This document shows positions 31,023-34,150 of a DNA stretch of 64,000 bases, one piece after another. The position numbers and the translations under genes are program-made. The number at the start of each line of letters is the position of its first letter. Positions within the stretch are counted from its first letter, which is position 1. The notes beneath the pieces were generated by a model. It ran no database searches. It saw nothing but the letters and a program-made list of their open reading frames with translations, and was not told the origin of the DNA. Source of the DNA: Bacteroidetes bacterium CG12_big_fil_rev_8_21_14_0_65_60_17 (GTDB lineage: Bacteria; Bacteroidota; Rhodothermia; Rhodothermales; UBA10348); contig PCUY01000075.1 in NCBI GenBank assembly GCA_002787815.1, positions 11,406 through 75,405 of the forward strand. The letters run 5' to 3'.

Positions 31023-32738
31023 GTGCAGACAAAATACATTTTTGTAACCGGGGGCGTCACGTCGTCCCTGGGCAAAGGCATCATCTGTGCCTCTCTCGGG
31101 CGGCTTCTTGAAGACCGCGGGCTGCGGGTTACCATCCAGAAGTTCGATCCCTACATCAATGTGGATCCGGGTACCATGAATCCGTACGAGCACGGCGAGG
31201 TGTATGTCACGGACGATGGTGCCGAGACTGATCTGGATCTGGGCCATTACGAGCGTTTCCTGGGCGTTCCCACGTCGCAGGCAAACAACGTGACGACCGG
31301 ACGAGTCTACCTGCAGGTCATCAACAAGGAGCGCGCCGGCGCCTACCTGGGCAAGACGGTCCAGGTCGTGCCGCACATCATCGATGAAATAAAGCATTGG
31401 ATGTTGAAGCTCGGTGAGACGGGCGATTATGATGTGATACTCACCGAAATCGGAGGCACCGTCGGCGATATCGAAGGGCAGCCGTACCTCGAGGCCATTC
31501 GCCAGTTGCGCTACGAGCTCGGTGTGAGAAACACGCTCAACATCCACTTGACACTGGTACCCTTCCTCGAGGCAGCCGGCGAGGTCAAAACAAAGCCGAC
31601 ACAGCACTCGGTCAAGACGCTGCTCTCGTTCGGCCTGCAGCCTGACATCCTGGTGTGTCGCACGGACAGGCCACTCGATACGGATGTGCGCCGCAAACTG
31701 GCTCTTTTCTGCAACGTCGACGCGGAGGCTGTCGTCGCGTCCCAGGATGCGGAATCCATCTACGAAGTCCCCCTGCTCATGCGCGAACAGGGTCTTGACA
31801 GCATTACAGCGCGGCTCCTGCGTCTGGATGAGGATTTCAAGGACCGCTTCGCCGATGCGCCGAATATGGAAGACTGGGTGGAGTTCGTTCGCCGCCTCAA
31901 AGAGCCCAGGAAGAAAGTCCGTGTGGCGCTCGTTGGCAAGTACGTGGAGCATCAGGATGCCTACAAGTCCATCAATGAAAGCTTCATTCTGGCCGGTGCC
32001 TGGATGGGTGTGCAGGTCGAAGTCCGGGAAATCCTCTCGGACCTGGTGACGCCCGAAAATGTGGATGAGTTGCTGTCGGACGTTGCAGGCGTCCTTGTGG
32101 CACCGGGTTTCGGCGAGCGGGGCATTGACGGTAAGATTGAAGCTGTCCGGTATGCACGTGAGAACGACATCCCGTTTTTCGGTATCTGCCTGGGCATGCA
32201 ATGTGCCGTCATCGAATTTGCGCGCCACGTATGCGGATGGGACGATGCGCACTCAACGGAATTCGATCCGGATACGGAGCACCCGGTCATTGATCTCATG
32301 GAAGATCAGAAGGCCATTGCCGAGAAGGGAGGGACCATGCGCCTCGGTGCCTATCGGTGCCGACTTTCCCCGGGCACGCGCGCCAGGGACATATACGGCG
32401 AGGACGAGATCAGCGAGCGGCACCGGCACCGGTATGAATTGAACAATGTCCTGCGCTACAAGCTGGTGGAGCACGGTCTGAGACTGAGCGGAATCAATCC
32501 GACCCGTGACCTGGTGGAAATCGTTGAGCTACCTGATCACCGGTGGTTCATGGGTGTGCAGTTCCATCCTGAATACCGGACAACCGTAGGGAGGCCGCAT
32601 CCGCTTTTCGAGTCGTTTCTGAAGGCCACGTTGGACCGGGCTGAGGAAACCGGGTCCACGTCGAAGCCCAAACCACCAAAGCGCCAGAAAAAGATTCACC
32701 TTGCCACGTCGCGACTGCTCAAAGGCGACGCCGAATAA
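31023..32738 (+). CDS. pyrG: CTP synthase
   Basis: TGGVTSSLGKG, KFDPYINVDPGTM, KTKPTQHSV, GICLGMQ, ERHRHRYE, QFHPE. Confidence 0.97.
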   Translation: MQTKYIFVTGGVTSSLGKGIICASLGRLLEDRGLRVTIQKFDPYINVDPGTMNPYEHGEVYVTDDGAETDLDLGHYERFLGVPTSQANNVTTGRVYLQVINKERAGAYLGKTVQVVPHIIDEIKHWMLKLGETGDYDVILTEIGGTVGDIEGQPYLEAIRQLRYELGVRNTLNIHLTLVPFLEAAGEVKTKPTQHSVKTLLSFGLQPDILVCRTDRPLDTDVRRKLALFCNVDAEAVVASQDAESIYEVPLLMREQGLDSITARLLRLDEDFKDRFADAPNMEDWVEFVRRLKEPRKKVRVALVGKYVEHQDAYKSINESFILAGAWMGVQVEVREILSDLVTPENVDELLSDVAGVLVAPGFGERGIDGKIEAVRYARENDIPFFGICLGMQCAVIEFARHVCGWDDAHSTEFDPDTEHPVIDLMEDQKAIAEKGGTMRLGAYRCRLSPGTRARDIYGEDEISERHRHRYELNNVLRYKLVEHGLRLSGINPTRDLVEIVELPDHRWFMGVQFHPEYRTTVGRPHPLFESFLKATLDRAEETGSTSKPKPPKRQKKIHLATSRLLKGDAE

Positions 32739-33402
32739 CGAGGCCCGCGCGACCCACGATGGGCCATGAGGGTTCCGGGCCCGGGCCTGGCGTCGGGCCC
32801 GGGCGTACCTTCAAGTCCGTGCGTGGTGTAGTTGGATCGGCAGCCGTGAGTATCAGGCGGTCTCCGTAGCGTTGCAGTCGACGTACGGTGAACTGCCTGT
32901 TCAGCGCATGGATAATGAGATTCCCGCCCGGAATATCGCCGGATGACTCGGGCCAGCCCACGATGATGTCGTGCTTCTGTATGCCGTCGCGCGCCATGCT
33001 GTCGTCGGGCATGGTGATGTACGCCAACGTTTTGCCCTCGGCCTCGGCCGGCAGCATCTGCCTGTCTACCCAATATCCTTCCCGGGGATCGGGCCAGCCC
33101 GCACCGCGCGGAGCGGCAGCTTCCGGTATGAAGATGAGCCGGTTGGCAGGCGCGTCCCCACGGCTCCCCACCACGCGGATACCCCTCGCCGTTCCTTCTT
33201 CCACGTCTACATGTCCCTTGCGCTCCAGCTGAGCAACGAGCTTGACGGCACTTGTAACGCTGCGTACATCGAGTCTGTTTGCCAACTCCCTGTATGTGGG
33301 AGAGCGCCCATCCTCTGCAATGTGTGTTTCAATGGCGCGAAGGGCATCCCGCTGCCGCGTACTGAGAGCGCTTCTGTCGGGTGCAACATGATCTCCAAAC
33401 AT
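32719..33402 (-). CDS. lexA: LexA-family repressor (winged HTH + S24 domain) with the catalytic Lys replaced by Arg
   Basis: LSTRQ...SPTYRELA..L..RS......LERKG....GTARGIR; A101-G102-W-P; DS135M; TVR174R where LexA normally has TVKR. Confidence 0.8.
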   Translation of the reverse strand: MFGDHVAPDRSALSTRQRDALRAIETHIAEDGRSPTYRELANRLDVRSVTSAVKLVAQLERKGHVDVEEGTARGIRVVGSRGDAPANRLIFIPEAAAPRGAGWPDPREGYWVDRQMLPAEAEGKTLAYITMPDDSMARDGIQKHDIIVGWPESSGDIPGGNLIIHALNRQFTVRRLQRYGDRLILTAADPTTPRTDLKVRPGPTPGPGPEPSWPIVGRAGLVIRRRL

Positions 33403-33403
33403 G

Positions 33404-33419
33404 GTGTAAATATATACAC
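33404..33419. promoter_or_regulatory. Candidate LexA-type operator 1, GTGTA-N6-TACAC
   Basis: gtgtaaatatatacac, 1 bp from the lexA start codon. Confidence 0.7.
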
Positions 33420-33434
33420 TTTTTATTGTGACAG

Positions 33435-33450
33435 GTGTACTTATATACAC
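33435..33450. promoter_or_regulatory. Candidate LexA-type operator 2, GTGTA-N6-TACAC
   Basis: gtgtacttatatacac, 31 bp from operator 1. Confidence 0.7.
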
Positions 33451-33459
33451 TAATTTACG

Positions 33460-33492
33460 TTATGCACACGTTATAAACTCGTTATCCACACG
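33460..33492 (+). promoter_or_regulatory. Array of three DnaA-box-like 9-mers with 11-bp period
   Basis: TTATGCACA-cg, TTATAAACT-cg, TTATCCACA-cg; the first and third match TTATNCACA. Confidence 0.7.
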
Positions 33493-33553
33493 GTAAAATG
33501 TCAAAAAGCGACCTCATCCGGTTGAAAACGAGCTTTTCCGTGACAGAGTGGCC

Positions 33554-33581
33554 TTGACTTTCGGACTTAAAGATGTACATT
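33554..33581 (+). promoter_or_regulatory. Sigma70-type promoter of the mraZ/dcw operon
   Basis: TTGACT-N16-TACATT. Confidence 0.6.
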
Positions 33582-33590
33582 AGCTGTATG

Positions 33591-33610
33591 GTGGGGAAAT
33601 GTGGGGAATA
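33591..33610 (+). promoter_or_regulatory. MraZ-binding direct repeats
   Basis: GTGGGGAAAT GTGGGGAATA, 10-bp period just downstream of the -10, like known GTGG/TGGG MraZ boxes. Confidence 0.7.
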
Positions 33611-33700: not shown

Positions 33701-34150
33701 ATGGCTCGTTTCAAGGGACAGGCTGAATACTCCGTCGACGCCAAAGGACGGGTTGCCATTCCGGCCAAGATGCGGGCCGCACTGAGTCCGGATGCGCAGC
33801 AGACATTTACGCTGACGAAAGGCTTTGAGCAGTGCATCTACGTGTACCCTCTCGACGAGTGGCGCATCCAGGAGGACAAGCTGGCCAGACTCAACAGTTA
33901 CGATCGGGAGTCGCGGCTGCTCGTGCGCATGATGCTCATGTGGGCCGAGGAAATTTCGCTCGATGGTCAGGGACGCGTATCCGTTCCCCGGACGCTCTCC
34001 GATTACGCAGGACTGAAGGACCGCGCGCTGATCATTGGTGCCATTGACCGAATTGAAATCTGGGATCCGGTCGTCTTCGAGGACTACCTCGCCGGGGCGT
34101 CCTCGAATCCTGAGGAGTTGGCTGAGCGCGTCATGGGGTCGGGACCATGA
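33701..34150 (+). CDS. mraZ: Transcriptional regulator MraZ
   Basis: FKGQAEYSVDAKGRV.IP and second repeat LDGQGRV.VP; IGAIDRIEIW. Confidence 0.95.
   Translation: MARFKGQAEYSVDAKGRVAIPAKMRAALSPDAQQTFTLTKGFEQCIYVYPLDEWRIQEDKLARLNSYDRESRLLVRMMLMWAEEISLDGQGRVSVPRTLSDYAGLKDRALIIGAIDRIEIWDPVVFEDYLAGASSNPEELAERVMGSGP

Follow-up and report, generated by a model that had tools for sequence, protein, structure and literature searches.

The 64-kb window (the whole stretch of DNA that was analysed, 64,000 nucleotides) contains a lexA-like gene, the product of which is called pseudo-LexA below, oriented divergently from mraZ-rsmH-ftsL-ftsI and convergently with pyrG. The 3' ends of pyrG and the lexA-like gene overlap by about 20 bp (window 32719-32738). 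Two palindromes with the pattern GTGTA-N6-TACAC lie between the lexA-like gene and mraZ, and an earlier note had put them forward as a candidate new variant of the SOS box. The features of the region are as follows.

32719-33402, minus strand: lexA-like gene, 227 aa, with a LexA winged-HTH domain and an S24 fold (PF01726 and PF00717)
33404-33419, no strand: proximal operator box (putative), GTGTAAATATATACAC, at -17 to -2 relative to the lexA-like ATG
33435-33450, no strand: distal operator box (putative), GTGTACTTATATACAC, starting 31 bp from the proximal box
33458-33498, plus strand: three DnaA-box-like 9-mers, TTATGCACA, TTATAAACT and TTATCCACA, between the putative operator and the mraZ promoter
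33554-33581, plus strand: predicted mraZ promoter, TTGACT-16-TACATT, from a sigma-70 consensus scan
33591-33608, plus strand: two GTGGGGAA repeats 10 bp apart, MraZ-operator-like, directly after the predicted mraZ promoter
33701-34150, plus strand: mraZ, first gene of the dcw cluster (PF02381), divergent from the lexA-like gene

Positions 33400-33451 of the window read catgGTGTAAATATATACACtttttattgtgacagGTGTACTTATATACACt. Both palindromes were recovered where the earlier note had seen them, and the 64 kb contain no third match to GTGTA-N6-TACAC, where 0.01 matches would be expected from shuffled sequence; two matches in one shuffle occurred in 0 of 100 shuffles. The distance of 31 bp from start to start was re-measured with the same result. 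The gap of 1 bp between the proximal box and the start codon also holds, with the single base 33403 separating the box from the minus-strand ATG at 33400-33402. This start is supported by the MFGD N-terminus, which is conserved in three species, and by the ortholog of a sister species (G003), which has no other in-frame start. Together the twin boxes span -48 to -2 relative to the ATG. Across the whole 2.9-Mb genome (G000) there are eight exact matches, compared with about 1.5 expected from base composition and three matches to a reversed control pattern.

Each DnaA-box-like 9-mer is followed by CG, the spacing is exactly 11 bp, and three species share an identical TGTGGATAAC.AGTTTATAA core. 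Upstream of mraZ, a TTCCCCACATTTCCCCAC block is found again in those orthologous loci that were inspected, which belong to the same genus and family. No minus-strand promoter for the lexA-like gene was found by the sigma-70 consensus scan; as a speculation, were the mRNA leaderless, the spacer of the proximal box would put a TATATT hexamer at -12 to -7. The adjacency of mraZ, the conserved DnaA-like boxes and the MraZ-type repeats suggest, as features of the sequence, that pseudo-LexA may be tied to division or replication control.

The lexA-like protein contains a LexA winged-HTH domain (PF01726, E = 2.8e-13) and a Peptidase_S24 domain (PF00717, E = 1.3e-7), and scores 73.1 bits against the LexA equivalog model TIGR00498, below the cut-off of 110.95. 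An AlphaFold (AF2) model built on a 30-sequence alignment has a mean pLDDT of 85. The best PDB matches of the model in Foldseek are the full-length LexA structures 3k2z, 1jhh and 3jso, and its N-terminal domain matches 1lea at 1.4 Å with 38% identity. The residues used for comparison with E. coli LexA are located as follows.

33241-33264, minus strand: recognition-helix codons R47-K54 (RSVTSAVK), from alignment with E. coli RSPNAAEE
32998-33000, minus strand: Ser135 codon AGC, at the position of the E. coli nucleophile Ser119
32881-32883, minus strand: Arg174 codon CGT, at the position of the E. coli general base Lys156

The recognition helix begins with RS as in E. coli, as had been noticed from the translation, and Lys54 occupies the position of E. 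coli Glu45. The Ser-Lys dyad (E. coli S119/K156) is incomplete, with the Ser present and the Lys replaced by Arg. Arg174 is invariant in the 30-sequence subfamily alignment and is Arg in every ortholog examined. Conservation of the nucleophile was followed in a genus sample of four genomes, comprising G000, G001 and the sister species G002 and G003 (lexA-like orthologs about 70% identical). G000, G002 and G003 retain Ser135, G001 has Gly in its place, and most of the remaining orthologs have Gly, Ala or Thr. The scissile Ala-Gly position aligns with Ala-Ala; an Ala-Gly pair, A101-G102, lies a few residues downstream of it and about 33 residues before Ser135, and is absent from the aligned orthologs of the other families examined. 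With Arg in place of the general base, RecA-stimulated self-cleavage of the lexA-like protein is unlikely. The K156R variant of E. coli LexA is known to cleave itself only at very high pH. Slow or conditional self-cleavage is possible in G000, G002 and G003, since these three keep both Ser135 and the nearby Ala-Gly.

The protein carries the signature of a dcw-linked pseudo-LexA subfamily, defined here by the LexA winged-HTH and S24 fold, the Lys156-to-Arg replacement and a [PG]DD[SGAT]M motif. A word-indexed homolog search returned four close relatives only, and an exhaustive search of 1.8 billion representatives was used for the wider set. Among the best 100 or so full-length matches, 30 share the Lys-to-Arg replacement, and their nucleophile position is occupied by Gly, Ala, Thr or Ser. 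A profile of the Lys-to-Arg subfamily separated the paralogs (at least 180 bits) cleanly from canonical LexA proteins (at most 114 bits). Of 75 Rhodothermales genomes sampled with this profile, 34 contained a member of the subfamily; 76 genomes from the remaining orders of the class contained none. In the gene neighborhood, mraZ is divergent beside the ortholog in 23/23 loci from relatives and in 30/30 of the best class-level loci, two sets that overlap. In a phylum-wide sample of other classes, pseudo-LexA proteins were found with the motif pairs PDDTM/LRRY, PDDGM/VRIL, SDDAM/VRFF and ADDAM/VRRL. In the first three of these four loci mraZ is divergent, while in the ADDAM/VRRL locus it falls outside the flank retrieved; the candidate operators of these other-class genes differ. 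A literature search found no paper describing the pseudo-LexA protein or the GTGTA-N6-TACAC palindrome. The subfamily is, as far as found, unpublished.

Conservation of the boxes was assessed in a three-way alignment of the whole intergenic region of G000, G002 and G003. The proximal box keeps its -17 position and its arms, GTGTA and TACAC, are invariant, with variation in the 6-bp spacer and in the 15-bp linker between the boxes. The distal box of G002 and G003 keeps the left arm and has a degenerate right arm (GTACTA). As a result of this imperfect distal box, the twin arrangement may be non-essential.

Comparison of orthologous lexA-like promoters across the Rhodothermales, a check proposed with the original observation, showed single or twin 16-bp palindromes of the form GTG(T/A/C)A-N6-T(A/T/G)CAC in about 20 or more families. 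Order-wide orthologs at 25-32% identity have the same box geometry upstream, usually as GGTGAAAAT-N3-TTTCACC. Where the boxes are twin, their spacing is often 31-33 bp and otherwise 41 or 54 bp, the latter two being near whole helical turns. The strict order-level motif, searched in six genomes from other families, occurs almost nowhere but at the lexA-like promoter; the control count is zero, and the other matches lie inside ORFs or in GC-rich flanks.

The half-site also changes with the recognition helix. Among the orthologs compared, helix RSVTSAVK or ASTTSAVR is paired with the half-site GTGTA, RSATSARK with GTGCA, and RSTNG(V)xK with GTGAA. Across the ortholog boxes the outer GTG/CAC does not change, and neither does the Lys at the E. 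coli Glu45 position. In the E. coli LexA–DNA complex Glu45 contacts the outer C of CTGT. Provided that this contact holds, the Glu-to-Lys change in the helix is a lead to explaining the outer C-to-G change in the operator. In the Salinibacter-type orthologs (loci L113, L114, L118 and L120) the left GTG arm has been lost from the boxes, which consist of two AAAAT-N-TTTTCACC half-palindromes about 23 bp apart. The helix of these four proteins, ASTNGVYK, resembles helices of genomes with full palindromes.

The genome was scanned for further occurrences of the palindrome with up to two mismatches and a required AT-rich spacer, and the flanks were judged for promoter-like AT-richness. Only two loci have such flanks, the lexA-like promoter and a site on contig C11, and both carry twin boxes. 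The second locus contains the following features.

C11:31093-31108 and C11:31125-31140: second twin-box pair, starts 32 bp apart, at the 5' end of an ORF
C11:31073-32692: second candidate target, a 539-aa ORF with a signal or lipobox-like N-terminus

G002 and G003 have these twin boxes too, at the orthologous gene and again 32 bp apart, and in all three species the boxes lie in frame, inside or at the start of the ORF. The gene is monocistronic and its product evolves fast, with about 50% identity between sister species. No Pfam domain was found in the 539-aa protein. Its distant relatives are about 700 aa long and contain a ComEA-like HHH_3 domain, which is absent from the 539-aa protein itself.

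Exact copies of the palindrome on contigs C19, C21, C39, C52 and C74 were considered as members of the regulon and rejected, as they lie within coding frames and have GC-rich flanks. Four of them encode V-H/Y-L/F/I-Y/S-T, and the C74 copy has a GC-rich spacer. The four intragenic GTGTACATTTnTACAC copies in G000 are at C19:24623, C21:91219, C39:140084 and C52:78059, in genes that are unrelated (for a phosphodiesterase, a BamA-like protein, a DUF6798 membrane protein and an M14-like peptidase). Their 16-mers were matched in both sister genomes, and the flanks place three of the four in the orthologous gene. These conserved intragenic copies could reflect codon-usage chance or could be weak internal sites.

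The genome encodes a second, canonical LexA, with its own box.

C6:23373-24020, minus strand: canonical LexA gene (Ala-Gly, GNSM, LKR), TIGR00498 score 107.1 bits
C6:23373-24046: region containing the direct-repeat box of canonical lexA
C39:35560-35578: direct-repeat box of recA

The score of 107.1 bits is slightly under the TIGR00498 cut-off of 110.95. The promoters of canonical lexA and recA both carry ATGTGTGT-N2-CATRTRWGC, a direct repeat with an 11-bp period (ATGTGTG-N4-ATGTGTG). In each of the four genomes in the genus sample, the exact recA site, ATGTGTGTGTCATGTGTGC, precedes recA, at 60-140 bp from the ATG. The canonical lexA version is likewise present in 4/4, the G001 copy having two mismatches, and the upstream regions of canonical lexA in some 25 relatives contain variants of the same repeat.

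The pattern ATGTGTGT-N2-CATRTRWGC gave clean results and is tighter than two earlier queries that were discarded. A loose TATGT-repeat expression recovered recA and lexA and also genes with no link to repair. A 22-mer from upstream of the C6 lexA, searched with mismatches, drew an unrelated GATATATTA direct repeat. The latter occurs in G000 as a triple repeat, GATATATTA-N2-GATATATTA-N2-ATATATCA, at C27:1097, C64:60903, C74:151175, C40:13651, C52:106423 and C67:137296; one of these six loci is directly upstream of a gene for a PLP enzyme of Cys/Met metabolism. The triple repeat is probably the operator of another regulator.

Repair genes, including a dinB/umuC-type polymerase gene and two uvrA genes, were located by signature motifs. 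With up to two mismatches and an AT-rich spacer, no palindrome was found upstream of recA, dinB, either uvrA, uvrB, uvrD, recN or ruvB, so the enrichment at repair genes that would be expected of an SOS box did not materialize. The SOS role is already taken by the canonical LexA, the box of which is conserved at both recA and lexA throughout the four genomes. The SOS box of this organism is the Balneolaeota-type repeat at recA and the other lexA, not the palindrome. Of the original proposal, the lineage-specific operator of a LexA-family neighbor therefore stands, supported by ortholog conservation and by co-variation with the helix, and the SOS label does not, given that repair genes are without the site.

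The Balneolaeota LexA motif, TTACACATATTTTWTACATA, is a direct repeat that was characterized by EMSA with Balneola vulgaris LexA (PMC7739468). Judged by sequence, the lexA/recA box described here looks like this motif extended to the Rhodothermales. The Balneolaeota motif comes from the same class of bacteria and has a TACAC/GTGTA element in common with the palindromes. A shared TACAC-like element is expected if the operator of the paralog evolved from an ancestral one. As the TACAC half-site also occurs in the canonical motif family, it is possible that canonical LexA cross-binds the palindromes.

The palindromes are probably the operator of the adjacent pseudo-LexA paralog, which would repress its own gene and control a tiny regulon unrelated to repair, leaving SOS to canonical LexA. 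Pseudo-LexA would be a paralog of true LexA that has kept the winged-HTH domain and the S24 dimerization fold and has lost the Ser-Lys dyad. One dimer is predicted per palindrome, with one recognition helix for each GTGTA arm. Starts 31 bp apart, or about three helical turns, would put two dimers on the same face of the DNA, where they could bind cooperatively. As the boxes occupy -48 to -2, bound repressor would occlude the core promoter or the transcript start and repress its own gene. The second target in the genus would be the twin-box module at the gene for the 539-aa secreted or lipoprotein-like protein; with one further twin-box target only, the regulon is expected to be tiny and to exclude DNA-repair genes. 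What the analysis shows is that the boxes exist, are conserved and co-vary with the helix, which sites a genome scan returns, and that the protein has the catalytic substitutions and a LexA fold; binding, cooperativity, repression and the lack of RecA-dependent cleavage are the steps that we infer.

A more specific form of this proposal is offered tentatively, with confidence that falls somewhat short of even. Pseudo-LexA would be a LexA-derived pseudo-protease repressor that acts independently of RecA, is tightly autoregulated through helically phased twin operators, responds to a division or envelope signal other than SOS, and is encoded head-to-head with mraZ. The boxes would then represent, for one lineage, the operator code of an undescribed repressor that is fixed beside mraZ in many genomes of the Rhodothermales and in some further classes of Bacteroidota.

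The membership of the neighboring protein in the LexA family and its LexA fold would also be expected of a true SOS box, in which case damage would inactivate either the LexA-like protein or canonical LexA and the gene would be damage-inducible. Tandem boxes are classical at lexA promoters. Ser135 and the nearby Ala-Gly survive in G000, G002 and G003, and the TACAC arm resembles the TTACAC element of the published Balneolaeota motif (PMC7739468). Nevertheless, this explanation is unlikely. Arg has replaced the general-base Lys in every ortholog examined, and most have lost the Ser as well; recA, dinB, uvrA, uvrB, uvrD, recN and ruvB are without an upstream site, a separate canonical LexA has its own recA/lexA box in four genomes, and the candidate regulon consists of the gene itself and one envelope-type gene.

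Still less probable is an unrelated regulator, for example of the CRP/FNR type (TGTGA-N6-TCACA), with the adjacency of the lexA-like gene being incidental or the sites serving the divergent dcw promoter. The order-level form GTGA-N8-TCAC is superficially like CRP-family half-sites and the boxes do lie in a region common to mraZ, but the arms are 2 bp wider apart than in CRP/FNR sites and the half-site changes in step with the recognition helix of the neighboring protein. In addition, the motif is nearly restricted to one promoter per genome, and the boxes abut the lexA-like start, 104-150 bp upstream of the predicted -35 hexamer of mraZ. The palindromes might also act as RNA hairpins in a 5' leader, affecting translation or stability, given that the arms are complementary, that both sides change between lineages and that the proximal box adjoins the start codon. 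The hairpins are weak, however (-4.6 and -5.1 kcal/mol, with stems of 5-6 bp), and folding of the leader as a whole is no better than that of shuffled sequences (z -0.7). Several ortholog boxes are asymmetric, so that pairing is broken yet one good half-site is kept, and the phasing of the twin boxes by helical turns favors DNA binding; a role as RNA elements is the most improbable of these explanations.

The operator proposed for pseudo-LexA has several known counterparts. Like the E. coli SOS box CTGT-N8-ACAG (consensus TACTGTATATATATACAGTA), the palindromes are 16-bp dyads with a TGT/ACA core and an AT-rich spacer, a likeness in geometry and core that the first description had rightly drawn. 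The E. coli lexA promoter likewise carries two boxes, and its LexA-type winged HTH also has a helix beginning with RS. The two E. coli lexA boxes are nearly adjacent, compared with starts 31 bp apart here. In contrast to E. coli, the outer base is G/C and not C/G in every box of every ortholog, Lys stands at the Glu45 position, the catalytic Lys is missing, and the palindrome is not at repair genes.

The second LexA proteins known from Xanthomonas, Pseudomonas putida and Geobacter are damage-responsive and have an intact Ser-Lys dyad. They resemble the present case in that the genome has a second LexA-family gene, which is autoregulated, has a palindromic motif of its own and controls a small regulon, whereas pseudo-LexA has the Lys-to-Arg change, has lost the Ser in most lineages and is fixed beside mraZ. 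The LexA of Synechocystis sp. PCC 6803 is a non-SOS repressor: its self-cleavage determinants are impaired, and its targets lie outside DNA repair. It is the sole known LexA of that organism, its motif is of the cyanobacterial RGTAC-N3-DGTWCB type, and it is not known to be linked to dcw. Pseudo-LexA differs from it in lineage and motif, in coexisting with a canonical LexA and in its linkage to dcw.

The non-canonical LexA proteins of Bacteroidetes combine a CI-like HTH with an S24 domain and recognize GGA-N5-TCC and CTAA-N5-TTAG (PMC8565304). They are likewise S24-family repressors of Bacteroidota with a palindromic operator in their own promoter. The DNA-binding domain of those proteins, however, is of the phage CI type, and they are cleavage-competent regulators of SOS genes, whereas the protein described here has a PF01726 winged HTH, its motif is 16 bp long with a wider spacer, and repair genes are not among its candidate targets. 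With respect to the Balneolaeota direct repeat, TTACACATAT-N-TACATA (PMC7739468), the boxes differ in being inverted repeats, in standing at the promoter of a paralog and in being absent from recA; the Balneolaeota-like repeat of this genome is at canonical lexA and recA and not at pseudo-LexA.

Among bacterial regulators LexA is unusual in that its binding motif has changed many times, and the leading model explains such change by gene duplication, motif divergence and takeover (discussed in PMC8565304). The duplicate described here appears to have diverged in motif, with a direct repeat giving way to a 16-bp inverted repeat that has a similar half-site, and in mechanism, through loss of the catalytic Lys. 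It did so without a takeover of SOS, staying as a gene, proposed to be autoregulated, beside the cell-division cluster. For annotation, the case is a caution that 'LexA' together with palindromes in the promoter does not equal 'SOS box'. On the sequence evidence, the palindrome, a motif not yet catalogued, would be the operator of a LexA-family paralog, and the protein family with its dcw linkage is more notable than the sites themselves. The co-variation of helix and half-site leads to directly testable predictions of specificity. If the proposal is true, half-site specificity would follow the residues of the helix, including the Lys at the E. coli Glu45 position, and the half-site code (G at position 1; T or A at position 4) would provide a natural series for the recognition rules of the LexA family.
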